Assembly (NCBI GenBank): GCA_040752395.1
Contig: JBFMHD010000004.1
Coordinates: 1-34,931, forward strand
Length of the DNA stretch: 34,931 nt
Source: Candidatus Hydrogenedentota bacterium
GTDB taxonomy: Bacteria > JBFMHD01
Reading direction: 5' to 3'
Shown here: positions 1,256-34,532 of the stretch, in pieces
Position numbering within the stretch: the first letter of the stretch is position 1
Layout of the letters: each line of letters begins with the position of its first letter
Program-made: the position numbers and the translations under genes
The notes under the pieces: generated by a model
Database searches by the model: none
The model's input: the letters and a program-made list of their open reading frames with translations, nothing else
Told to the model about the DNA's origin: nothing

Positions 1256-1326
1256 GAGTAGCTATGTTTTGAATGGCACAATGATATACTGCTCCCCATT
1301 AAGATGAGACACTTTAAAGGAGAGGA

Positions 1327-1573
1327 AAAGAGGCACAAAGGCACAAAGGATGGAAAACTAAAGATGATATGAAAAGAGCCGTGAGTCAAAACAGGACTCA
1401 GGACTCAAGACTCAAGACTTTTCAGCAGGCTCTGGGCTTTTGGCTCCAGCCGGCTGTAGTCCGTAGCCTGTAGCCTGTAGCCTGTCCTGATACCTCTCAC
1501 TTCTTCCGTTATCTTGCTTCTTGCTTCTTGCTTCTACTTGATATCATTAGAGTTACAGCGTTTTTCAGAGGAG
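1327..1573 (+). repeat. Modular heptamer-hairpin repeat, copy A
   Basis: aaaactaaagatgatat, (gactcaa)n, cagccggctg, (tagcctg)n and (cttcttg)n blocks shared with copies B, C, E, F. Confidence 0.95.
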
Positions 1574-1690
1574 AAAGTGTATATTTTCGCTTTTCGGTTC
1601 GATCGGTGAATAATCTTCTCTCGAGAGGATACATCGTATAAAATTTTATTACAATAAACTTAAAAAATTACCGAAATCTTAAATGATGGC

Positions 1691-1733: not shown

Positions 1734-2046
1734 AACTTTTTCGAAGGAGTCGTCATGAGCGCGGTTTGCGCTCTACACTATTGGGTTATTGGGTTATTGC
1801 GTTTTTGCACTCTACACAAAGGATGAAAAACTAAAGATGATATAAAAAGAGTCGTGAGTCGCAAGTCGTGAGTCAAAACAGGACTCAAGACTCAAGACTC
1901 AAGACTTTTCAGCAGGCTTTTGGCTTTTTGCTCCAGCCGGCTGTAGTCCGTAGCCTGTAGCCTGTCCTGATACCTCTCACTTCTTCCGTTATCTTGCTTC
2001 TTGCTTCTACTTGATATTATTATAGTTACAAAGTTTTTCAGAGGAG
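1734..2046 (+). repeat. Modular heptamer-hairpin repeat, copy B
   Basis: Near-identical to copy A over about 220 nt, plus a 5' module gagcgcggtttgcgctc shared with E and F. Confidence 0.95.
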
Positions 2047-6749: not shown

Positions 6750-8519
6750 ATGCAAATAAAGATTAAATCGGATAATTTTGATAAAAGCCTGATTAATGAC
6801 TTAAGTAAAAAATTTAATATCTCTCAACTCATAACAAAAATTATTTTATCACGTGGGCTTAAAACAGAAAAAGAAATCGATGAATTCTTAAACCAATCTA
6901 TCTCCAGGCTCCATAACCCCTTCTCTTTTAAAGATATGAAAAAAGCAGTTGATCGAATAAGAAATGCTATTCTTATGAAAGAAAAGATACTTATCTATGG
7001 AGACAGAGATGTTGATGGTATCTGCGCAGTTGTAATATTATTTACAATTCTAAAAGATTTAGGTGCAGAGGAGATTTATCATTATATCTCTGACTCTTGC
7101 GGATATGGGTTACATAAACATATTATAGATATATATATAAAAAAAGGTGTTTCTCTTATTATTACCACTGACTGCGGAATAAGAGACGTAGAAGCTGTTA
7201 ATTATGCTAATAGTTTTAATATCGATTGCATAATAACTGACCATCACGAACCAGCTGAAGTCTTACCTGAAGCATATGCTTTAATCTGTTCAAAAATAAA
7301 AGACGATACCTATCCAGACCATTCTATATGTGGGGCTACCATATCTTATAAATTAGCTCAAGCTTTGATAAAAAAAGAGACAGATGTAGTTTCTATTGAT
7401 AGATTGCCAGCTAAAACCGAGTTTATAAAATCGATACATAATAAAAATACGAAAATAATACAGGCAAAACTCAAGGATTTATTGATACTATCAGGTATAG
7501 CAACTATAGCAGATGTCGTACCGTTAATCGGTGAGAATAGAATTATCTCAAAATTTTGTCTCTCTAATATATGTGAGACTGAGATACCGGGATTACAGCT
7601 GATACTTAAGAAGTTGTTAAATAATAAAGATTATATTACTGTTCGGGATATAGCTTTTAAAATAGCACCGCTTTTAAACTCACCCGGTCGATTTGAAAAC
7701 TCGGAACTAACATTTAAACTTCTGACCTGTACCTCTACTGATGCTTTAGAATCTATCAAAAAAGTATTAAAATTTGATAAATTAAGAAAAGAGGTTACGC
7801 TTGAAAATTCTCTGATTATTAACAAATTATTAGAAGAGCAGGTTGATAAAGAGAACGACAATATTTTTCTTCTGATAGCTAATAAAATGCGGCATGGTGT
7901 AACAGGTATCGTTGCAAACCGTATATTAGCTGGGTATTCAAAACCAGTTATTATTTTAATTAATGATGGAAGAGAAATTATCGGTGCAGGTAGATCTAAT
8001 GAAGATGTTGATTTAATAGAAATTCTTAAGCAATGCCAGGATTGTCTTAAAAAATACGGCGGTCATTCACAAGCTGTTGGTCTGACTCTTAAAAGAGAAA
8101 AACTACAGGAATTTAAACGGAGAGTCAAGGAGATAGCAAAAAAATTAATACTAACTAAAAATTATTTAGATATTGATATGTGTTTAAACATTCAAGATAT
8201 CTCGTTTAAATTCGCAAGTGAACTCTCTTTACTTGAGCCTTTTGGTTGCGGAAACCCGGAACCTCTATTTCTACTTAAAGATATGAAGATATCTGAGGAT
8301 AAACAAGTAGGTAAAAATAAAGAACATATAAAGATTAAAGCCCAAGACAATCTCTCATCAATAAACATGGTCTATTTTAACGGTAAAGATAAATTTTATG
8401 AAACAATAGATAAATCAGCGAGATTTGATATAATAGTCAGACTCTATATCGATGAGTATCTTGGCATCAAAAGAGTAAACACCGTTATCGAAGAAATATA
8501 TCCATCAAATTCAAGATAA
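6750..8519 (+). CDS. recJ: ssDNA 5'-3' exonuclease RecJ
   Basis: IYGDRDVDG, TTDCG, ITDHH, TIADVVPL, GGHSQAVG, LEPFGCGNPEP. Confidence 0.93.
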   Translation: MQIKIKSDNFDKSLINDLSKKFNISQLITKIILSRGLKTEKEIDEFLNQSISRLHNPFSFKDMKKAVDRIRNAILMKEKILIYGDRDVDGICAVVILFTILKDLGAEEIYHYISDSCGYGLHKHIIDIYIKKGVSLIITTDCGIRDVEAVNYANSFNIDCIITDHHEPAEVLPEAYALICSKIKDDTYPDHSICGATISYKLAQALIKKETDVVSIDRLPAKTEFIKSIHNKNTKIIQAKLKDLLILSGIATIADVVPLIGENRIISKFCLSNICETEIPGLQLILKKLLNNKDYITVRDIAFKIAPLLNSPGRFENSELTFKLLTCTSTDALESIKKVLKFDKLRKEVTLENSLIINKLLEEQVDKENDNIFLLIANKMRHGVTGIVANRILAGYSKPVIILINDGREIIGAGRSNEDVDLIEILKQCQDCLKKYGGHSQAVGLTLKREKLQEFKRRVKEIAKKLILTKNYLDIDMCLNIQDISFKFASELSLLEPFGCGNPEPLFLLKDMKISEDKQVGKNKEHIKIKAQDNLSSINMVYFNGKDKFYETIDKSARFDIIVRLYIDEYLGIKRVNTVIEEIYPSNSR

Positions 8520-8879
8520 CAAAAGAAGCAAGAGGCAAGAGGTAAGATAACGGAAAGAAAGATAACGAAAGAGGCACAAAGGCACAACGTATGAAAAACT
8601 AAAGATGATATGAAAAGAGTCGTGAGTCAAAACAGGACTCAAGACTCAAGACTTTTCAGCTGGCTTTGGGCTTTTGGCTCCAGCCGGCTGTAGTCCGTAG
8701 CCTGTAGCCCGAATTATTAGAGTTACAGCGTTTTTCAGAGGATAGGAGTTAGGAGTTCGTAATAATAGATCCGAGCTCCGAGCTCCAAACTCCGAACTCC
8801 GAAGAAGTGGTGAGGGTCACAAGACCCGTAGCAGGCAAATAAATTTGCAATTTGCAATTTACAATGGAGCGAAGCGACC
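8512..8879 (+). repeat. Modular heptamer-hairpin repeat, copy C
   Basis: (gcaagag)n purine tract, core shared with A and B, extra (aggagtt)/(ctccgaa) hairpin, (tttgcaa)n, atggagcgaagcgac. Confidence 0.93.
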
Positions 8880-16867: not shown

Positions 16868-17095
16868 CTCCGAACTCCGAACTTTTTCGAAGGAGTACTC
16901 ATGAGCGCGGTTTGCGCTCTACACAATATATGAAAAACTAAAGATGATATAAAAAGAGTCGTGAGTCGCAAGTCGTGAGTCAAAACAGGACTCGAGACTC
17001 AAGACTCAAGACTTTTCAGCTGGCTCCGGGCTTCGGGCTCCAGCCGGCTGTAGCCCGTAGCCCGTAGCCTGAGTTTTACAATGGAGCAAAGCGAC
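16868..17095 (+). repeat. Modular heptamer-hairpin repeat, copy E (5' part)
   Basis: Matches copy B from ctttttcgaaggag to the (tagcccg)n tract; ends with the atggagcaaagcgac module. Confidence 0.95.
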
Positions 17096-17139: not shown

Positions 17140-17454
17140 ATGAGATGGTTTAAGGATGTTTATAATCGACGGGTTCGATTGACGGATGAACGACAAGAAC
17201 ATCTTGAAATTGATCATCCTGAAATGGCAGGGCAAATTAATAAAATAGAAGAGACCTTGTTAAGTCCTGATCAGGTAGTCAAATCAAAAACAGATCCAAA
17301 TGTTGAATTATTTTATCGACGTTATGATATCACACCAGTCACTGAGAAGTATATATGTGTTATAATTAAGGTATCGATGGGAGACTTATTTATTATAACA
17401 GCATATTTCACGAATACAATAAAGACAGGAGAAATATTATGGAAAAAACAATAA
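17140..17454 (+). CDS. Putative BECR/RelE-like toxin (PBECR2/DUF4258-like)
   Basis: VRLTDERQEH..HPEM..IEETL..PD..ITAY; overlaps a DUF2283-like partner. Confidence 0.65.
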   Translation: MRWFKDVYNRRVRLTDERQEHLEIDHPEMAGQINKIEETLLSPDQVVKSKTDPNVELFYRRYDITPVTEKYICVIIKVSMGDLFIITAYFTNTIKTGEILWKKQ

Positions 17455-17642
17455 AAATTTGGTATGATCCAGAGGGCGATTATTTAGAGGTAATTTTTGA
17501 ACGGAAAACTGGTTACTTTAAAGAAACTGAAAATGATGCAATAATGGAAAAAGTCGATGGAGCAGGAAACATTATTGGTTTTTCCATTCTAAAATTGAGT
17601 ACACTCAAAGACCAGAAACCACTTTCAGTAAGTTTGCGATAA
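17439..17642 (+). CDS. DUF2283-family putative antitoxin
   Basis: IWYDPEGDYLEV..VDGAGNIIGFSIL; SD AGGAG. Confidence 0.8.
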   Translation: MEKTIKIWYDPEGDYLEVIFERKTGYFKETENDAIMEKVDGAGNIIGFSILKLSTLKDQKPLSVSLR

Positions 17643-17698: not shown

Positions 17699-17850
17699 TA
17701 GTCCGTAGTTGGTAGCCCGTCCTGATACCTCTCACTTCTTCCGTTATCTTGCTTCTTGCCTCTTGTTTCTACTTGAAATTATTAGAGTTACGAAGTTTTT
17801 CGAAGGAGTCGTCATAAGCGCGTTTGCGCTCTACACAACGTATGAAAAAC
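17699..17850 (+). repeat. Modular heptamer-hairpin repeat, copy F (3' part running into 5' module)
   Basis: tagtccgtag..gtcctgatacctctcacttcttccgttatcttgc.., then ttttcgaaggagtcgtcat..gcgctctacacaa. Confidence 0.93.
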
Positions 17851-17901
17851 AGGTTTTTTTCCTTACTTTTAACTTTTAACTTGTCAAAGGGAGATTCTAA
17901 A

Positions 17902-20900
17902 ATGATTAAAAGAACAATTTTTATTCTCGGATTTTTACTTTTATATCCACACCTCGGTTATGCATCAACTCTTCGTATCGTTAGCCCTTCAGATACCGAT
18001 GTATTCGATACATACGGAACAATCGTTGATGATTCAGGTATGGTTGATGACTATATAACTTTAGAGGTCTGGGTTAATGCTCTTGATACTGATATTAACG
18101 GTGTCGAAATCCATTTAAGTTATGACCCTGCGATACTTCAACTTCAGGATGTAGGTGGTGACAGTTTCCCGGCCGATAGCCCTGGTATTCAAATATGGGA
18201 AGACCACTCCCAACTCGGTGATATTTTAGTAAATATCTCTTCTGGCGATACTATAGATTATTCGAGCCTGACCAATGCTGACTCGATTAAATTAGATGTT
18301 CGTGTCTGCACGATGTTATTTAAAATCCTGAGCTATACAGAAACAACTGTTATAGGCTGGGATTTTGATGAAGCAAATAACCGTGTCTCAAGGGTAACCG
18401 AAGCTGATAGCGGGTCTAATGTCTTAACAGCTGTTGATTCTGGTATCATAACTATTCAGCAAAACAATACCGGTGACTCACATCTCCTTATCAGTGAAAT
18501 ATTATATGATGGTGTCGGTTCACCTGATGAAGAATATATTGAAATATACAACCCGCGTAATGATACAGTTATTCTAACTAATTATTACTTAAGTGATGCA
18601 ATGGATACATATTTCAGTTTACCAGAAGATACCCCAACTGTATCATCTGGTGATTTTATAGTTAGATTTCCACAATCAACATTTATTGCTCCGAGAGATA
18701 CAATATTAATTGCTATAAATAGTAGTGATTTTAATACAGTCTATCCTGGGCTTCATCCGGACTTTGAAATAAACCAGGACGGTAACAGCGATAATGTAAG
18801 CGATATGGTCATTATAGAATCCAGTGGAACGATAAGCTTATCAAACACAGGTGAAGGTGTGGTGATGTTTTACTGGAATGGAGTAACTGATTTAGTTTAT
18901 GATGTTGATATAGTTGTCTTTGAAGATATAACTTATGTTCCTGATAAAACAGGTTATTCTCAGGATGGCCCTGATATAGGAACAGAAACCTCAACGTATA
19001 AAACAGATGATACCAGTGCTTATACTCTCGCTTCTAATTCTGCAACCGGCCAATCCCAGACACGCATCGATGTCAATGAAGATAATGAAACGCGATTAAA
19101 TGGTAATGGTATCACAGGTAATGACGAGACAACTGAAAAATTGAGCCTATCATTTAATGGTACCGCATCCCCTACACCATATCATGACGATTTAATAGCT
19201 TATAAAACAGGTGATTATTCTGGCTATTTTACTGATGGTGAAACAAGTGTTGAGGTACTTCAATTTTATCTTGCGCCTGCAAGCTTTATAGATGATACAC
19301 TTGTACAATTAACCCTGCGAAACCTTGGAAATATGGATGATACTGATGTTGATACTGTCTCTTTGTATATCGATGCAGATAAAAGTCTTACGCTATCTTC
19401 ACCAGATACTTTTCTTGGATACCTTACATGGAATCAAGGTAGTAGTGTCTGGGAGACAACATCTGCAAGTATTTATATACCCCAATCAGGTGAAACAATA
19501 CTTGTTATATTAGACATCTCTGATTCGGTCTCGAATGCTGATACATTCAGAGCGCAAATAGATACCTGGGCGTTACGTATGACCACATCTGATAGTGGCC
19601 CCTTTGTGGCGATAACCAATGCCAATGATTTAACAGCTGTTGTAGGTCAATTACTTGTCTCGAAGAATACAGATGTACCTATAAATTATTTTATTCCAGG
19701 CTCAACTAACATAACTATAGCCTCGCTTTATATTCGTGGCAGCACATCAGGTGACACTTTAACTAAATTCACCATTAGAAACATCGCTAATCTTGATACC
19801 CAATATATAACAGCTGTAAAACTCTATGCTGATGCTGATGCAAGTTATACTTATTCAGCACCTGACACATTCGTAGCACTACTACTCTATGATACTTTTA
19901 ATCTCTGGTTCGATACTGACACAATCCAGTATCCGCTTGCTGGAGCTGGCAGTAATTTTGTTGTTACAATAGATGTCTCAATCTCTGCTATCTATGAGCG
20001 AGACTCATTTGTAGCACAGGTCGTAGCTAATGAGTGCTCCGGCGTTATAGCAACTCCGGGCCCAAATACTAATGTGACCAATGCCTATGGCCAAATACTT
20101 GTTAACCCACCAGGCATAGCTACGCACCCGGTAATAAGCCAGGTATATCCTAATGATGCCACTGGTAATAATAATGGCTTATTTATTGAATTGTATAATC
20201 CCACAGATACTGCAGTGGACATATCAGGTTGGACCATACGTGAAGATAATAATAACCTTGTCTTCACAATAGGTAACGTTACCTTACAACCAGGTCAATA
20301 TTATCTTATAGGTGACAGGGATTATGTAACTGAGAGTGATAACAGCCAGTGGCCTGCAGCTGATACCCTGACTTCCACTACTATTGGCTGGAGTGTTACA
20401 AATGATGGTATCTACCTTGCTGATACAACTAAGAGGATAATCGATGCTGTTGGCTGGGGCTCACCAGCAAGTAGTAATAATTATGAATCCGATCCAGCGA
20501 CAGCAGGAAATGGTGTCTCTATTATGCGGCGATCAGCTTATGGTGCCACATCTACTGAGATGCTTATTGGTGGCAGGCGATGGGTTCAGGGGCGTGGCTA
20601 TGATTCATTTAATAATGCCTATGATTTCCTGAGTATCTCAGACACAACGCTTATCGAACCTAAAAATTCATCCTATCGCCGTGAGTTCCCTGACTCATGG
20701 ATTGTTACTGTTACTAAAACAGCTGACCCAGGACCTGCAACAATATATTCAAATGATACAAAAGTCACTGTTATGGCTATAGGCATAACTGGTGATACTG
20801 ATAATGATAATCTCACTATATTTAGTGTGAAAAATATCGGTAGCGCTGATACTCAATCTATTAGTAAAGTTGAAGTATGGAAAGATAATAATTTAAATAA

Positions 20901-23900
20901 TAGCTGGGATAGTAGTGATTCATTTGTAGCTGTGCTTATCTATAACGCATCTGATACTCGATGGGATACTAATACTATCTCGTTCCAGTTCAATGGTATC
21001 AGTGATACTTTTATTGTTACTGTAGATGCTACTTCTACACCAGATGATAACGATACTCTGCAATTCAGTATTACTGTTTATACAGTTGATGCTATAGATG
21101 CCGAATCAGGTCCTGCAATAGCAGTAACCAATAACAATTATTTTTCGTTCTCAAGTTTACAGCCTTTGCAGGTCTCTAAAAATGAAGAGATAGATTCGAG
21201 CCTTGTTGGCAGAAATGATACTAATATAACAGTTATAGCTATCCGTATAACAAGCCCTGTTGGACCTGATACACTCACATATTTTACAATCTTAAACCTT
21301 GGCAATATGGATAACGGCGATGTTGATACAGTTACCTTATGGATAGATGCGAATAGTGATTCGAGATGGAGCTCTTCTGACACTTTTGTAGCAAACCTTT
21401 CTTATACCTCACCGGATACCTGGTCAAGCGTTGTAGATGTATATATGTCAGCTGGTAGTATGGATTTTGTTGTAACTATCTCAACGAGTGATACCGCAGA
21501 TTTTGGTGATACGTTCCAGGCTCAAATACCTATTAATGGCTGTGGTGCATCGCTCGCTGATAGTGGACCACTTACTACCGCTGTCACCAGCCTCGGTATC
21601 ATAACACTTGATACTTATGCTAATATCTCTTTACTTATAACTGAGGTGATAATCGATGGTAATGATGCAGTTGAGATTTATTGTCTTGATGACGGGAATA
21701 GCGGACTGGGAGCTGATATCTCAGGTTGGTTCATTAATGATATGGACGGTGGTGTGGATAAAGTTATAGGAGATACTGATAATAATGAAAGTAAAGACAC
21801 CCAGGTTATTATCAAAACTGGAGAATTTTTAGTTATTGATGGTTTAACTGGTACAGATGAAAGCGTAGCAGGACCCGATGGTATAATTTCTCTTCACAAT
21901 GCCGGGAACTGGGTCACTGATGGTGATGACCAGGTCGTGTTATATTCGCCTGATACAGCTATTAAAGACGCTGTATGCTTCTCTACAAGAGGTGGTTCTC
22001 TAGCATCAGGTGAAGATAATGATATGAATACGCTTTTTGCTAATAATCAATGGTCACCTTCTTATGCAACAGAAAACAATTGTGTCAACCCGATTAACAC
22101 CTCTGATTTCCCTGCTGATTATTCAATAGCTCGAGCATGGCCTCCATCTGATACAGCCAATACCCGCGATGAATGGTCGGTTGATGCAACCCCAAGCACA
22201 GGCGCCATTAATACCGCAGAAAATCCTATAACTATCCCTGCTGATGTTGTGATGTTGGACATAGCTGATGTCCCTGATGATCTTGGCGGCAATCTAATAA
22301 TAACATGGACACCTGATACCAGTTATCCTGATTTTGACCACTATAATATTTATGTAAGTACCGCAGCAATAACTGACATCCGTAACTCGGTTATAATACC
22401 TTCCTCTACACAAACCGATTCTTCAGTGGGCGAATATACTGCCTCAGGCCTTACTAATGGTGATTCTTATTATGCTGCTGTCACAATCGTGGATATTTAT
22501 GGGCACGAGGATAGAGTGGTTACAGATACAGGGCCTGCTGCACCAATTAAAAATGTTGTTGACACACCTATTATACTGATTACAGAAATAATGGCATGGA
22601 ACACTGGTGGTTATGATACAATCGAGCTCCTTGTTATCTATGATGGTAACCCATCAGGCGGCTTAAATCTATCCGGATATCGGTTATATGAAGATAATTA
22701 TATAAAAACATTTGGAAACAGCACAGTACATGACAGCGTTTATATCCTTGTGCAGTTAAATGTTTCTGCTACTGATGATTCTGACACATCAGGTGATAAT
22801 ATATTAAATGTTTATTCAACCGAGGCTGGTTTAACAGGAACAGATGAATCTATGTTTTTATTTGATCCGGCTGGCAGAATAGTAGATTTTGTCTGGTGGG
22901 CTAATAGAAGTGGCTCGGTCACCTCACTTGAACAGTCTGATATCCAGATGGCAATTGATTCTGGTGCCTGGAAAGGCCTGGTACGAGAAAATAACGCAGT
23001 GAATCCTATTTCTGGTTCATCATTCCCTGACTCGTGTTCCCTGACACGGCGAGCTGGTGGTGCTTTTGATTCTGACTCTTATGTGGATTGGGTTGTTGAT
23101 ACAACCCCGACACCTGGCTATGCTTCAGATGTACCTGAACAAGCGTTCACACCACCATCACCAATAACTAACATAAACGCCTATGATGTGATACTTGACC
23201 AGGGTTCGAACATATTACTTAAGTGGGATACTGTCACTATATCTGGTTTTGACCATTACAATATTTATGTTTCAACCGCGGCTTTTACAAATATCACAAA
23301 TACTGACTCAGTACCATTTGACACAGTAGATACTTATACCCAGGGCTGGTACAGGGTCTATGGTCTTAACCCGAGTTTAAACTATTATTTTGCTGTTTCA
23401 GCTGTTAATATCTACGGTGCTGAGGACAATAATCTTTCTTCCACCGGACCCACATCACCAATCGATAATATTCCAGGAACAATTAAAGTAATAATTAATG
23501 AGGTTGCGTTCAATGGTGGTGGTGGTGGTTTCGCTGATGACTGGATCGAGCTTTTTATACTTGATGATGGTAATAACAATCAAGGTTGCAATCTTGCAGG
23601 CTGGTATATTGGCAATAACGGACATACCAGCGGTTCTATCTTCAAAGCATTTGGCAGTAATGAGAATGCGTCTGCAATAGTTGATTCAGGTTGTTATGTT
23701 TTGATCCATTTCAATTCGAGTACTATTGATGAAGAAGATACGATGGATGGTGATGCAGATGGTGTGCTTGAGGTCTATACCACCTCGAGCGGTTTACCAG
23801 GAGGCGGGAGTACTGATGATAATTTATCACTCTATGGTGATTCCAGCGCTATCGAAGACTTTGTCTGTTATGGTGATACAGGAACTTTCAGTTCAGGTGA

Positions 23901-24531
23901 AGATGATGATTTACAAAACTACGGCATAAATACAGGAAATTGGAATGATTATGCACCAGCAGGCGCAGATACTACTGACCTCGTTTTTACTCTATATATA
24001 GGTTCAAGCCAATCAATCGCACGCATACCTAACGCCTCGGATACAGATGATAAAGCTAACTGGCAGATAGATTCTACACCAACACCTGGAGCATTAAACC
24101 AGATTACTGTGACTTATAATGTTTCTGGTTATGTTATACTTGAGGCTCGGGCTTATGGCTCTGATACAGGTTGTACTGTATGGGTTACAACAGGTTCTGA
24201 AACATATATCGCAACTACCAATGCTTATGGCACTTTCACCATAACAGGCGTACCTGCTAATACCTATACCTTATATGCAAAAGAATCTCATCATTTAAGA
24301 AGGATTAAACTCAATGTAGTTGTCAATTCTGATACAGACATAGGACTTGTCGGTACATTGCTCGCTGGTGATGCTAATAACGATAATTACATCAATTTAC
24401 TCGATGGTTCTATAATAAAGATTGGTATGAGTACAGGTTACAGAGCTGATGCTGATATAGATGGTGATAATGATAATGATCAGTCAGACTTGCAATGGGT
24501 GCGTAGAAACTTTGGTGACATAGGACAATAA
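17902..24531 (+). CDS. Giant secreted protein: cohesin-like, five lamin-tail domains, Ig/FN3-like repeats, dockerin-like (P2)
   Basis: SD GGGAG and signal peptide; ITLEVWVN..INGVEIHLSYDPAILQL; five LTD starts (LLISEI, PVISQV, LLITEV, ILITEI, VIINEV); GDANNDNYINLLD..ADIDGDNDNDQSD. Confidence 0.8.
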   Translation: MIKRTIFILGFLLLYPHLGYASTLRIVSPSDTDVFDTYGTIVDDSGMVDDYITLEVWVNALDTDINGVEIHLSYDPAILQLQDVGGDSFPADSPGIQIWEDHSQLGDILVNISSGDTIDYSSLTNADSIKLDVRVCTMLFKILSYTETTVIGWDFDEANNRVSRVTEADSGSNVLTAVDSGIITIQQNNTGDSHLLISEILYDGVGSPDEEYIEIYNPRNDTVILTNYYLSDAMDTYFSLPEDTPTVSSGDFIVRFPQSTFIAPRDTILIAINSSDFNTVYPGLHPDFEINQDGNSDNVSDMVIIESSGTISLSNTGEGVVMFYWNGVTDLVYDVDIVVFEDITYVPDKTGYSQDGPDIGTETSTYKTDDTSAYTLASNSATGQSQTRIDVNEDNETRLNGNGITGNDETTEKLSLSFNGTASPTPYHDDLIAYKTGDYSGYFTDGETSVEVLQFYLAPASFIDDTLVQLTLRNLGNMDDTDVDTVSLYIDADKSLTLSSPDTFLGYLTWNQGSSVWETTSASIYIPQSGETILVILDISDSVSNADTFRAQIDTWALRMTTSDSGPFVAITNANDLTAVVGQLLVSKNTDVPINYFIPGSTNITIASLYIRGSTSGDTLTKFTIRNIANLDTQYITAVKLYADADASYTYSAPDTFVALLLYDTFNLWFDTDTIQYPLAGAGSNFVVTIDVSISAIYERDSFVAQVVANECSGVIATPGPNTNVTNAYGQILVNPPGIATHPVISQVYPNDATGNNNGLFIELYNPTDTAVDISGWTIREDNNNLVFTIGNVTLQPGQYYLIGDRDYVTESDNSQWPAADTLTSTTIGWSVTNDGIYLADTTKRIIDAVGWGSPASSNNYESDPATAGNGVSIMRRSAYGATSTEMLIGGRRWVQGRGYDSFNNAYDFLSISDTTLIEPKNSSYRREFPDSWIVTVTKTADPGPATIYSNDTKVTVMAIGITGDTDNDNLTIFSVKNIGSADTQSISKVEVWKDNNLNNSWDSSDSFVAVLIYNASDTRWDTNTISFQFNGISDTFIVTVDATSTPDDNDTLQFSITVYTVDAIDAESGPAIAVTNNNYFSFSSLQPLQVSKNEEIDSSLVGRNDTNITVIAIRITSPVGPDTLTYFTILNLGNMDNGDVDTVTLWIDANSDSRWSSSDTFVANLSYTSPDTWSSVVDVYMSAGSMDFVVTISTSDTADFGDTFQAQIPINGCGASLADSGPLTTAVTSLGIITLDTYANISLLITEVIIDGNDAVEIYCLDDGNSGLGADISGWFINDMDGGVDKVIGDTDNNESKDTQVIIKTGEFLVIDGLTGTDESVAGPDGIISLHNAGNWVTDGDDQVVLYSPDTAIKDAVCFSTRGGSLASGEDNDMNTLFANNQWSPSYATENNCVNPINTSDFPADYSIARAWPPSDTANTRDEWSVDATPSTGAINTAENPITIPADVVMLDIADVPDDLGGNLIITWTPDTSYPDFDHYNIYVSTAAITDIRNSVIIPSSTQTDSSVGEYTASGLTNGDSYYAAVTIVDIYGHEDRVVTDTGPAAPIKNVVDTPIILITEIMAWNTGGYDTIELLVIYDGNPSGGLNLSGYRLYEDNYIKTFGNSTVHDSVYILVQLNVSATDDSDTSGDNILNVYSTEAGLTGTDESMFLFDPAGRIVDFVWWANRSGSVTSLEQSDIQMAIDSGAWKGLVRENNAVNPISGSSFPDSCSLTRRAGGAFDSDSYVDWVVDTTPTPGYASDVPEQAFTPPSPITNINAYDVILDQGSNILLKWDTVTISGFDHYNIYVSTAAFTNITNTDSVPFDTVDTYTQGWYRVYGLNPSLNYYFAVSAVNIYGAEDNNLSSTGPTSPIDNIPGTIKVIINEVAFNGGGGGFADDWIELFILDDGNNNQGCNLAGWYIGNNGHTSGSIFKAFGSNENASAIVDSGCYVLIHFNSSTIDEEDTMDGDADGVLEVYTTSSGLPGGGSTDDNLSLYGDSSAIEDFVCYGDTGTFSSGEDDDLQNYGINTGNWNDYAPAGADTTDLVFTLYIGSSQSIARIPNASDTDDKANWQIDSTPTPGALNQITVTYNVSGYVILEARAYGSDTGCTVWVTTGSETYIATTNAYGTFTITGVPANTYTLYAKESHHLRRIKLNVVVNSDTDIGLVGTLLAGDANNDNYINLLDGSIIKIGMSTGYRADADIDGDNDNDQSDLQWVRRNFGDIGQ

Positions 24532-24562
24532 GAGTCGTGAGTCGTGAGTCAATGGAAAGATA

Positions 24563-24823
24563 ATGAACATAACAAAGTTTGAAGAAATTAAAGCATGGCA
24601 GATAGCAAGAAATATAGTGAATACAATTTACAAAATAACTCACAGCTATCATTTTGATAAGGATTTTACTCTTCGTGAGCAAATAAGGCGTGCCGGCATA
24701 TCAGTTATGTCAAATATTGCAGAAGGTTTTGATCGTGGCAGCGACAAAGAATTCGTTCATTTCTTATTTATTGCCCGTGGATCTATATCAGAAATTAAAT
24801 CTCAAGACTCAAGACTCTTATAG
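24563..24823 (+). pseudogene. Four-helix-bundle (IVP/TIGR02436-like) protein, C-terminally truncated
   Basis: FEEIKAWQ..QIRRAGISVMSNIAEGF..FLFIARGS.SEIKSQ, then runs into a gactcaa tract and stops at 86 aa, without the last helix. Confidence 0.8.
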
Positions 24824-24828
24824 AATTT

Positions 24829-27800
24829 ATGAAACGAGAAACATGGTATAAACTTTTTTCTATATTATTTCTTTTAGTGATTGGATTCTTTCTTGTTAAT
24901 GACAGAGACCTTGAGGCTGTTAGAGAAATCCGGATAGTCGCAGAGACCGATACCGCAGGCGCTAATATACTTGATAAATGGGTTCGAGCCGGCGATACTT
25001 TTACGCTTGAACTCTGGATTGAAACAGATACAAATATTAACGGTGTGGCAGCATATCTACTCTACGAAGCTAATAAATTGAATTTAATAGGTACCGGTTT
25101 TACAAAAGACACTACAATCTTCGGAGATACTGCTTTATTAGACACCGGGTTTGATTATGGTGGTTCTTCGGATACAATGATCTATGCGATATTAACCACT
25201 GCTGATTCGCTTGCTATGAATTCATCTGCAAGGGTTTGTACTTTAACTCTTGCAGCAACTTTTAATGAAGATACAGGGATAATCGGGTTCAATCTTGATT
25301 ATACTAATAACAAAGCCTCAATGATAGCGAGTATATATGCAACAGATGTTCTGAATTCTCTTGATTCTGGTGTTATACGTATCGATGCAACACCACCTAA
25401 AGATACTTTTATATTAATATCACCAATAGATGGCGAAACACGAGTCCAGGGTAGTATCCAGTTTGTATGGCAAACAACTTATGATACTGGTTCCGGGCTC
25501 TCTCACTGGGTTTTAGAATATGATACTGATTTAACTGATTCGTTTAACCCGTCGCTTTATCGTGTCTATACCTCTGATTCGGTCTGTACTTATACGCCTG
25601 CTATTAATTTTACTATCGGCACCTGGGTCTGGCGGGCCGCGGCAGTTGATGAGGTCGGGAATACCTCATCCTGGTCACTGCCTGAAACCTTTGTGGTAAT
25701 ATTACCAACAACACCACAGGTCTATATTGATTCACCTACTGGCTATGTCCCTACTAATGATACACCGTTTTATGTTGCTGGCAGTACCTTAAATACCCAG
25801 GCTGGTGATACTGTGAGAATCAGAGTAAATGGGATAATACAGGATACAAAAATTTTGAGTATTGCAAATGATACGTTCGCTTTTGATACTGTCTCATTAA
25901 GTCCCGGTTATGACACGATTATTGTCGAGTTAATAGACTCCCAGGGTGTTGTAATTGACTCGGACTATGTTGTTGTTGAATACAATGATTCTGTCTATGT
26001 GATAATTCAGATACCGGTTCCATCAGGCTTTAGTTATGATACGAATTATTGTACTGTTACTATCTCTGGCACTGCTGGCGATGTAGAGAATGGCGACTCT
26101 ATCTATCTTTATCGTAACAATATTATTCAAAACACTTACTCTCTCACAGGGAATAGTTGGTCAGGCACTGTGACTTTATCAGGTTTAGGTGATTCGATTG
26201 TCGTAAAAGTGAAAGATAGATTTGGTAACATTGATTATGATACCATAACAATAAATTACGATACACTTGCTTCTATAGAAATATTATCACCAATTAACCC
26301 TGATACCAGAATTGATACAGTGATAATATCCGGAACAGTTGCGGATGTTCTGCCAGGTGATACTGTCTGGTTATATGTAAATGGGGTTCTTACTGATTCA
26401 AAAGTATTAACAGATACTACCTGGAGTTGCACAGCTTATCTTAAAGGTATGGGTGATTCTGTGGTTGCAAAACTTACTGATAGATATGGCAACATTGCAT
26501 GGGATACAATTACTCTTAATTTAGATACAACACCGCCTACGACTGTAACACTTTTATCTCCACCAGATGCAACTGAGACAAGGTTTACTGCTATTACTTT
26601 TATCTGGGTTACCTCAATTGACACGCAATCAGGTCTTTTTGAGCATCGACTCCAGGTCGATACACTTGGAACATTTGCTTATTTTATCTATGATTCATCT
26701 GCTGGCACAGGAACAAGCGGGATTTTAACTTTAGCTGCAAATGATACCTTCTACTGGCGTGTATTAGCAATAGATGATGCAGGCAATACCTCTGTAAGTA
26801 ATACAAGAACGATACTTATAGATACTATCATTCCCCCAAAACCCACTATTATATCACCTGCAAATAATACAGAGACCAGAGCTCAACCTGTGTATTTTGA
26901 TTGGACTGACATTATTGATACAACCTCAGGTTTAAACAGGTATCATATCCAGATAGAGATAAGCGGAGTAGTTGTAGTTGATTCTGATGTGACAACCTCG
27001 GATACAAGCATTACCTTAAATGAAGAGACTTATTACTGGCGAGTGGTTGCGATAGATGATGCAGGCAATACCTCGGGATACACTGATTCATCGCTCGTTA
27101 TTATTGATAGAACAGCACCTGTTATTTGGGTCGTATTAATCGAAACATCAGATTCGCGTTATTTTACTGATAGCGGTGGTATAGATACAACTCTTTTAAG
27201 TGATACTGTATATTTTAACAACACAGGTGCTGGTGATGGTCAGCGTGATACAGTTCAATTGACTGTTAGTGGCGCTGATACAGTTATATTCGAGGAGCAT
27301 TTTGGTGATACAACTTTTTATGATACCCAGACACCATATCTCTATGCTTATACTATTGAAATAGGATACGCCGATACAATGATGATTATAATCGCTCGTG
27401 ATAACGCAGGGAATGAAGATTCTGTAACAATCTGTTGGATACGCGATATTACGCCGCCACCACCTGTCTCTTTAGTTACACCATTAGATGGCCAGATAAC
27501 CGGCGACACTACCCCTTCCTTCACCTGGAACCAAACAACAGATACTCAATCAGGAACAAAAGTATATTTAATCGAAATAGCTACTGATAATCTATTTACT
27601 AATAATATAGAAACCTCATTTATATATACGACATCTTATACTTCTTCGGGTCTTGATAGTGGGACGTATTACTGGCGAGTTATCGCTTATGATACGGTCT
27701 CAAATTATGATACGCTATCTTGCGAAACAAGGACATTAAGAATCGATACAAGTTTCCCGTATATAACAGCGATTACTATAATATCTTCAGTCCCATCATA

Positions 27801-33107: not shown

Positions 33108-34532
33108 ATGGGTCTTGATAGCAGAAAACAAAATGTTAAAAACCTATCTGTATTATCTAAATCTCTGTATTCTAAATTCCTTAGTACATCATACTTTGCT
33201 TTTTCTTCTTTATATTGCTTCTTACTTCTTGCTTCTCCAACATATGCTAAGCAATACGCTGGTACAACAGGTGCCCCGTTTCTGTTGATTACACCTGATG
33301 CAAGGAGTAGCGCGATGGCTGGCTGCGGGGTATCGTTCCTGGATGATGCAGCTGGTTTATCACTAAACCCAGCATTACTCGGATTAAGACACAAGAGCCA
33401 TATCCAGGCGCTATATTCAGAGCGGTTTGCTGATATAAAGTATAATTATCTTGGTGTAGCTATGCCTGTGTTTGAACGCGGAAACGCAGGAGTAAATTTA
33501 GTAAGTTTACGAGCAGAAGATACAAGAAGAGAGGCACCTGGCATAATAATGGGAACCTTTGATGTAACTGACCTCGCGTTTACAACCGGTTACTCGCATT
33601 ACATACTGGATAATCTGATACTTGGCGGTGATGTAAAGATCATACGCCGGGAGATAGAGAGTGTTACAGCAAACGCTTTTGCACTCGATGCCGGGGTTCT
33701 GTATAAAGATGTGGTAAATGGACTTAATTTCGGCTGTAGTTTGCAGAATTTAGGCACTGATATCGAGTTCGAACAAGCTGATTTTGACTTGCCATTGACA
33801 CTTCGCTTTGGTGGATCCCTACAGACTAAGTACCTAAACTTCGCAATGGATTTTGATAAAAGCAAAGAGAGATCATTAAGAATGAACATCGGGGCAGAAT
33901 TCAAGCTCGGTGAGGTATTGAGACTGCGAACCGGATACAAGATAGGAAACGACTATAGTGGTATAGATGATTGGACATTAGGGTTCGGGATAAAATATGG
34001 TATATGGTCATTAGATTATTCGTATGAACAGTTTGAGGACTTAGGAGACGTTCATAGATTCCAGACAGGTATAGAGTGGGGTAAAGTAAGAGACGAGATA
34101 AAGCCTGAAGAGATACCAATCGAAGAATTGAAATTTACACCAACAGAGAAACAGGTCTCTCAATTAGAATTGAGACCAAAAATAATATTCCCACTCTATC
34201 ACAAAGGGACATTCTGTATAATAAAAGGCGAAGAAAAAGACTGGATCAGAGAATCAATCGAGAGGGTATTTATCTCAGGGATGGAGAAACATAGGTTTGT
34301 GAAATATATTAACCTCGAAAATGAAGCTGTATTAATAACTGAATTAAAGTATATAGAGTCAGATGGAGATATCAAGGTAGTTGGTTATGTTTGGGATATA
34401 GAGAAGGCTGATGCTATACTCAGAGTTGAGCGTCAAGGAAAGACCGAAGAGATAGTAAATATAGTTTCAGATATAGCCTCTGAAATCTCTTCTACTCTTT
34501 TCGGCCCATTAGCAAAACCCTCCAACCACTGA
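33108..34532 (+). CDS. PorV/PorQ (UPF0164)-like outer-membrane beta-barrel with C-terminal extension
   Basis: GTTGAPFLLITPDARSSAMA..NPA..DAGVLY..QNLG..LPLTLRFG..LRTGY..DYSY..LGDVHRF. Confidence 0.85.
   Translation: MGLDSRKQNVKNLSVLSKSLYSKFLSTSYFAFSSLYCFLLLASPTYAKQYAGTTGAPFLLITPDARSSAMAGCGVSFLDDAAGLSLNPALLGLRHKSHIQALYSERFADIKYNYLGVAMPVFERGNAGVNLVSLRAEDTRREAPGIIMGTFDVTDLAFTTGYSHYILDNLILGGDVKIIRREIESVTANAFALDAGVLYKDVVNGLNFGCSLQNLGTDIEFEQADFDLPLTLRFGGSLQTKYLNFAMDFDKSKERSLRMNIGAEFKLGEVLRLRTGYKIGNDYSGIDDWTLGFGIKYGIWSLDYSYEQFEDLGDVHRFQTGIEWGKVRDEIKPEEIPIEELKFTPTEKQVSQLELRPKIIFPLYHKGTFCIIKGEEKDWIRESIERVFISGMEKHRFVKYINLENEAVLITELKYIESDGDIKVVGYVWDIEKADAILRVERQGKTEEIVNIVSDIASEISSTLFGPLAKPSNH

Follow-up and report, generated by a model that had tools for sequence, protein, structure and literature searches.

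A truncated four-helix-bundle gene between heptamer-repeat arms in a Candidatus Hydrogenedentota genome: probably a small insertion cassette in decay

The 34,931-nucleotide (nt) stretch of contig JBFMHD010000004.1 from a Candidatus Hydrogenedentota bacterium (assembly GCA_040752395.1), referred to as the window, contains a small open reading frame (ORF) of the four-helix-bundle family TIGR02436/PF05635 between two giant genes, here named P2 and P3. This ORF is enclosed by two complementary heptamer arrays, the arms, which raises the question of whether the unit is an intervening sequence (IVS) acting inside a messenger RNA (mRNA), as the first-pass annotation of this DNA had proposed, an ordinary small gene that came to lie between repeats of the host, or an inserted element. 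Our analysis indicates that the P2-P3 locus is probably an inserted element in decay, one copy of a small cassette that consists of an arm, a four-helix-bundle gene and an inverted arm. The coordinates of the features are collected in Table 1.

The first-pass annotation had described a pairing of 18 of 20 nt between positions 24529-24548 and 24801-24820 with G-A mismatches 7 nt apart. This pairing was borne out, and the additional pair 24528:24821 extends it to 19 of 21 pairs (24528-24548 with 24801-24821), the mismatches being 24537:24812 and 24544:24805. Folding in a 550-nt context gave a pairing probability of at least 0.9 for all 19 pairs, and the fold of the whole region has a z value of -2.3. 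The complementarity score of 16 was reached in none of 1000 base shuffles of the downstream flank. Among 999 ORFs of the genome with up to 150 amino acids (aa), only two score at least 16, the gene studied here and a paralogue on contig C146, both members of the four-helix-bundle family. Three full repeat units are present in the 5' arm compared to two in the 3' arm, which lies wholly within the reading frame of the ORF, while the TAA stop codon of P2 (24529-24531) is located inside the 5' arm and the base of the stem is 7 nt from the ATG of P3. The arrangement known from ORF-bearing ribosomal RNA (rRNA) IVSs, in which terminal inverted repeats form a long stem around a sense-strand ORF, is thus found at the P2-P3 locus. 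A search with Rfam gave no matches in the window, and a scan of positions 24300-25000 yielded two promoter-like sites, with 2.6 expected, and no terminators.

The assignment of the gene to the four-helix-bundle family was confirmed by profile searches with PF05635 (E 3.6e-26; 91.9 bits as opposed to a curated cut-off of 33.8) and TIGR02436 (E 1.5e-24; 86.3 bits as opposed to 24). However, measured against a complete four-helix bundle of about 120 aa, the ORF is a truncated member, which covers positions 1-75 of 106 in the profile and lacks about 35-40 C-terminal residues with the end of helix 3 and helix 4. At 86 aa it is shorter than each of the 38 homologues returned (120-146 aa), and in an alignment with 19 homologues the homology ends at Gln81, while the relatives run about 40 residues further. 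In a sequence search of the PDB, 2GSC was the nearest solved structure, followed by a weaker match to 2RLD; Avd was not returned. Since the break sits on five bases that are common to the ORF and the 3' repeat unit, we infer a microhomology deletion of about 110-135 nt, which would have removed the end of the ORF; the distance from the break point to the stop codon is 120 and 135 nt in two homologues. The remnant now ends with a TAG stop codon 5 nt upstream of the P3 ATG. A pattern search in metagenomes gave 14 matches, one of which (L207) is an intact gene with similar GAGTC arms whose 3' arm follows directly after the stop codon. An unrelated, GC-rich metagenome contig (L211) contains a hairpin without an ORF, whose loop measures about 60 nt and whose two heptamer arms are nearly identical to those of the P2-P3 locus. 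The gene copy at P2-P3 is probably dead, a deletion relic, and the locus is most likely a dead intermediate that presents a snapshot of collapse.

Whether other family members lack complementary flanks had been named in the first-pass annotation as the observation that would count against its proposal, and the answer from three sets of loci is in its favour. Set 1, a genome scan rich in sibling Chryseobacterium with 48 loci, 46 of them scorable, showed complementary flanks with a score of at least 10 in 39/46 loci as opposed to 1/86 shifted windows; the controls in direct orientation and between loci reached 7/46 and 51/276, respectively. In the broader set, the family was present in 46 of 121 genomes. 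For set 2, 30 loci were fetched, one per family, and 28 remained after the copy of the genome itself and a locus at a contig edge had been left out. Here, 23/28 loci scored at least 12, compared to 0/98 control windows, while pairs between loci scored at least 10 in 20/224 cases. Set 3, whose seven genomes are from one phylum and are not independent, contained such flanks at 22/26 loci, and 4/30 loci gave no hit. The repeat units differ between loci and are mostly 7-mers, with some 8-mers and few 6- or 9-mers, and G exceeds C in the 5' arm at 36/42 loci. The layout of repeat arm, four-helix-bundle gene and inverted repeat arm is thus general.

The host genome itself contains five family matches. 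Two, the paralogues on C347 and C146, are intact and enclosed by arms of a separate type each, and three are damaged, namely the P2-P3 remnant, a gene with an internal deletion between intact 8-mer arms (L005; G000:C92:3632-3760) and a degenerate copy cut by the contig end (L004; G000:C92:6-260). Decay is therefore common, with three of five matches affected, which counts in favour of a decaying cassette, and the four scorable paralogues each have an arm type of their own. A role of the 5' arms as translation stops in all frames was considered and rejected, as three arm types of this genome contain no stop triplet; over all arms, stop triplets were found at 96 (5') and 51 (3') of 1129 positions.

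Filled, collapsed and repeat-free states of a single site can be compared at the junction of trpE and trpG. TrpG was found in 142/151 genomes of the family to which the Chryseobacterium loci belong, and 70 junctions were taken from the top of the TrpG similarity list, of which one is the query's own filled locus and one has no trpE; 69 were classified. A family gene is present at 12 of the 69 junctions (four of type 1, seven of type 2 and one of type 3), with stems scoring at least 11.5 in all 12 cases. Each of the three types combines its own arm unit with its own protein, and types 1 and 2 are about 26% identical. Another 15 junctions are repeat-free with overlapping stop and start codons, and of the remaining ones, one holds a decayed type-1 gene and one an unrelated gene that lacks arms, while 40 have shorter or other spacers. 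Among 13 spacers that were inspected, seven are ORF-less hairpins with a score of at least 10 and the same arm types, five score lower and mostly have one arm left, and one contains the decayed type-1 gene already mentioned. These states are interspersed on the host tree, with sister pairs of filled and unfilled junctions, and since three protein types occupy one site, repeated gain or exchange is needed. In these comparisons, arm, ORF and arm behave as an insertion unit, and the empty hairpins look like collapse products of cassettes.

Two further observations concern this junction. At six loci (L070, L074, L075, L079, L084, L102), the 3' arm of the cassette is a translated N-terminal extension of TrpG that was kept after the cassette gene was lost. 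In addition, repeat elements unrelated to the heptamer arms occupy the trpE-trpG spacer at L091, L105, L112, L113, L120, L121, L123 and L136, and the junction seems to be an insertion hot spot.

The empty form is abundant in the host genome. A total of 227 empty hairpin cores were counted, 218 with one loop sequence and two inside ORFs, while the P2-P3 locus is the sole place in the genome with a gene between such arms; our own scan of the 2.84-Mb genome also found 1,218 period-7 arrays. As 118/698 contig ends of this 93.8% complete assembly bear an empty core within 300 nt, the numbers of repeats are approximations, and unassembled parts may contain additional cassette genes. The empty hairpins belong as one module to a longer mosaic repeat, three arm types of which match the arms of three different four-helix-bundle paralogues of the genome. 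The end of this repeat bears a Shine-Dalgarno (SD) motif and has 448 matches in the genome, with a start codon 5 nt later in 118 of them. We also scored the possibility that codons from the beginning of a paralogue survive in the mosaic behind its GGCACA arm, and 36 of 1490 ORF starts equalled or beat this score.

In the first-pass annotation, the P2-P3 unit was regarded as the filled form of the empty hairpins, and copies A, B, C and E indeed have a 7-nt loop between arms of the same two types. The filled copy and the empty ones have the arms in common, including the register of the G-A mismatches, which points to a shared ancestry of the arms. However, they are not alleles of one site, because the empty copies have a constant loop and flanks of their own, which differ from those of the filled copy. 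The shared arms thus stand, but the evidence runs from filled to empty.

Three other explanations have to be weighed against the decaying cassette. The one that survives best, although we consider it unlikely, is a functional IVS of the mRNA, in which the stem folds and is cut by RNase III, or is crossed at its base by ribosomes, so that the expression of P2 and P3 is controlled or coupled. The predicted stem of 21 bp is stable, its length is about what RNase III needs, and one RNase III gene is present in the genome. The position of the P2 stop within the stem and the short distance from its base to the P3 ATG agree with this explanation, and upstream stop codons lie within 20 nt of the stem at 20/38 homologous loci. 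In Coxiella, the S23p IVS is reported to be cut by RNase III at its first heptamer (PMC4990558). However, the mismatches show no wobble bias on the mRNA strand, with 36 G-U pairs in the sense and 45 in the antisense strand. The sense duplex is the more stable one in only 2/16 type-1, 0/7 type-2 and 13/23 diverse loci, and the arms of a locus pair better than expected from other copies in only 6/16 type-1 and 1/7 type-2 cases. These tests are indirect, and the 16 type-1 cassettes, which include 12 loci of set 1, are kin and not independent. Moreover, the TrpG start is located inside the loop, with a translated 3' arm, in 15 of the 16 type-1 cassettes, and excision would therefore remove the start codon of TrpG.

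The geometry at the junction needs no RNA function either. The first-pass annotation had suggested that folding brings the P2 stop codon close to a P3 start without an SD motif, but the stop codon of the remnant itself lies 5 nt before this ATG, and ordinary coupling from it accounts for the P3 start. Since only 449/1105 long ORFs in the genome are preceded by an SD-like motif, the lack of one at P3 requires no special account. Downstream starts lie within 20 nt of the stem at 14/38 homologous loci, and an upstream stop and a downstream start are both found within 25 nt at only 8/35, so that this part of the proposal was not upheld. The description as an IVS-like unit inside an mRNA holds for the anatomy, which is that of an ORF-bearing IVS, but not for a role in the mRNA, as neither selection for pairing on the sense strand nor co-variation of the arms was detected. 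The P2-P3 copy is probably without a dedicated RNA function, although RNase III may cut the stem passively, as a by-product.

A domesticated regulator is a still less probable explanation. Here, an intact pentamer would bind heptamer stems in many transcripts, including the empty ones, and tune their stability or translation, while the P2-P3 copy would be redundant and have lost its function. All five protomers of Avd, a relative by fold (PMC10053308), take part in binding an 11-bp RNA stem-loop according to a preprint (bioRxiv 10.1101/2023.10.23.563531), and 192 of the 227 empty hairpins are co-oriented with the neighbouring genes, with 16 opposed. However, this co-orientation is mostly explained by the SD-bearing module of the mosaic repeat, because the module follows 3' of 148/227 hairpins; among the 30 hairpins without it, 21 are co-oriented and six opposed. 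Protein similarity and arm compatibility are uncorrelated over 35 loci (Mantel rho 0.03, p 0.32), and the sole gene with such arms in the assembly is the broken one.

The least probable explanation, that an ordinary small gene ended up between two copies of an abundant dispersed heptamer repeat of the host, or had its flanks converted by them, with an incidental stem, draws on the roughly 1,200 period-7 arrays, on flank stems of at least 16 around 22 of 2738 scored ORFs of all sizes and on the match of the P2-P3 arms to the mosaic hairpin module, but it is largely refuted for the class, as a score of 16 among the 999 small ORFs is confined to the four-helix-bundle family, the arms at P2-P3 come without the other mosaic modules, and in unrelated genomes every homologue comes with complementary arms of its own, few of which match between loci (20/224).

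We therefore return to the decaying insertion cassette, for which the following history is proposed. A unit would have entered a tight junction of co-oriented genes in sense direction and have ridden on the host transcript, as is seen for the class and would apply to P2-P3 by analogy. Tolerance by the host may stem from translation of the cassette ORF, by which the next gene is coupled again, rather than from RNA splicing. Judging from the junction, a deletion between the five shared bases would then have cut off the last 110-135 nt or so, leaving a three-helix stub with its stop codon 5 nt before P3. Further deletions, of the kind seen at trpE-trpG, would lead to ORF-less hairpins at P2-P3 as well, and such hairpins are the likely source of the module that was amplified about 227 times in the mosaic repeat. 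For the spread of the cassettes, we tentatively favour arm-based recombination at the DNA level, in which the intact pentamer would act as a nucleic-acid chaperone while the chemistry is left to enzymes of the host; this is the likeliest route in our opinion, but a conjecture that could well be wrong.

Several points weigh against this history. At trpE-trpG, no consistent target duplication and no fixed end were found by eye, where slippage of the arrays blurs the ends, and the patchiness could in part go back to repeated losses from a filled ancestral state, which would however leave the three protein types unexplained. The insertion at P2-P3 is deduced from other loci, because an orthologous junction was found neither in 40 other genomes, all related at the level of the same domain only, nor among 115 metagenome candidates retrieved with the P3 N-terminus. 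The remnant still has an open frame and has kept all 16 invariant residues of the alignment, and a residual role may exist for it. In the 93.8% complete genome, there was no match to the reverse transcriptase family PF00078 and none to the Y1 transposase family PF01797, other transposase families not being part of the search, and a viral collection yielded only one related locus, so that no route of mobilisation emerged from these searches. GxxExxY (PF13366) was not found in the assembly.

The closest known systems are the ORF-bearing IVSs in the 23S rRNA of Coxiella burnetii and Leptospira, in which a gene of the same protein family lies in sense orientation in the loop of a terminal stem (PMC4990558). 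For the Coxiella S23p IVS, heptamer repeats at the 5' end, RNase III cleavage at the first repeat and decay of the ORF have been described (Warrier et al., 2016; PMC4990558), and changes in repeat number are shared as well. Mobility, for which the IVS ORF was thought to serve according to an older idea, was proposed there rather than demonstrated (PMC4990558). In contrast, the P2-P3 unit, known from its sequence alone, lies between protein genes and not in a helix of 23S or 16S rRNA, both of its arms are repeat arrays, its truncated gene runs into the 3' arm, and the host genome has these arms in hundreds of empty hairpins as well. A 23S rRNA gene was not found in the assembly. The unit is thus IVS-like in anatomy, but not an rRNA IVS.

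Dispersed heptamers have been described from other bacteria, such as GGGAATC in Xanthomonas, with close inverted pairs in 70 and 75 cases in two genomes (Rehm et al., 2015; PMC4692102), and TAACTGA arrays in Beggiatoaceae, Cyanobacteria and Bacteroidetes (MacGregor, 2015; PMC4679880). Like the repeats studied here, they are intergenic tandem heptamers, often in close inverted pairs and of unexplained origin (PMC4692102; PMC4679880). The main texts of these two papers, supplements aside, give no tie to the four-helix-bundle family, and the ORF-filled form and stages of collapse are what distinguishes the present case. Avd of the diversity-generating retroelements (DGRs) is described as a related pentameric four-helix barrel (PMC10053308) that binds an RNA stem-loop (bioRxiv 10.1101/2023.10.23.563531), the kinship being one of fold as stated in these papers. 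Unlike in a DGR, no reverse transcriptase of PF00078 was found in the host genome.

MITEs (miniature transposable elements with inverted repeats), as well as repetitive extragenic palindromic (REP) sequences and bacterial interspersed mosaic elements (BIMEs) with autonomous partners, comprise numerous short empty copies together with a small number that carry a gene and share the inverted ends. The cassettes resemble them in this ratio of empty to gene-bearing copies, but they have no transposase fold, the Y1 transposase and a clear target duplication were not found, and their ends consist of tandem arrays that differ in the number of whole units. No description of a general arm-ORF-arm cassette was found in a literature search that covered subscription journals poorly and excluded supplements, and the cassette is apparently undescribed.

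Table 1. Coordinates of the features discussed for the window.
Feature	Position	Strand	Description
Empty hairpin A	1374..1421	+	loop 1388-1394, within mosaic repeat
Empty hairpin B	1847..1908	+	loop 1875-1881, within mosaic repeat
Empty hairpin C	8614..8656	+	loop 8629-8635, within mosaic repeat
Empty hairpin E	16954..17016	+	loop 16982-16988, within mosaic repeat
Mosaic repeat copies in the window	1320-1575; 1734-2050; 8512-8745; 16880-17071 with 17699-17830		ordered 7- and 8-mer modules, SD-bearing end piece
P2, upstream host gene	17824..24531	+	lamin-tail, fn3, weak cohesin-like N-terminus, weak dockerin-like C-terminus
5' arm	24528..24550	+	three GAGTC-containing heptamer units, cores 24532, 24539, 24546; 24528-24548 paired in predicted stem
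Truncated four-helix-bundle ORF (TIGR02436/PF05635), 86 aa	24563..24823	+	homology to Gln81 (24805), then five residues from 3' arm
Inferred deletion junction	24801..24805	+	CTCAA, five bases common to Ser-Gln codons and 3' heptamer unit
3' arm	24801..24821	+	GACTCAA-type heptamer units, inside remnant ORF reading frame
P3, downstream host gene, 2726 aa	24829..33009	+	Ig/fn3-like repeats, weak secretion-tail match; ATG without SD-like motif

The neighbourhood contains three giant surface proteins in a row (12550-33009), of which P1 and P2 end in a dockerin-like sequence, and a gene of the PorV/PorQ family (33108-34532) follows after P3. The true start of P2 is probably near 17903. Taken together, P1-P2-P3 and the PorV/PorQ gene resemble a cohesin-dockerin assembly, outside the setting of a cellulosome and with a type IX-like anchor. 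Mosaic copy E is interrupted between 17072 and 17698, within an array of the GTAGCC type, by a probable toxin-antitoxin pair that consists of a PBECR2-like gene (17140-17454) and a DUF2283 gene (17439-17642), and the halves of this copy resume on both sides of the pair. Another probable toxin-antitoxin pair is formed by the small RHH-type and RelE/ParE-type genes at 146-656.

For the family as a whole, a wider proposal can be made, which is speculative and which we hold with less confidence than the route of spread suggested above. TIGR02436 genes with their repeat arms would be unrecognised mobile elements without a transposase, in which an Avd-like pentamer holds on to the periodic stem of its own unit and brings in a polymerase of the host or one acting in trans that copies the unit into gene junctions. 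The rRNA IVSs would then be the subset that landed in rRNA, dispersed heptamer hairpins, including the 227 in this genome, would be non-autonomous descendants, and P2-P3 would be an intermediate between the filled and the empty form. The locus shows how cassettes may collapse into empty repeat hairpins, and also that stop and start codons may be neatly placed in a predicted hairpin without any RNA processing being implied. It links a large protein family, for which a structure has been solved but a function is lacking, with abundant intergenic heptamer repeats of open origin, and if the cassette is mobile, both the function of the family and the origin of the repeats would become testable.

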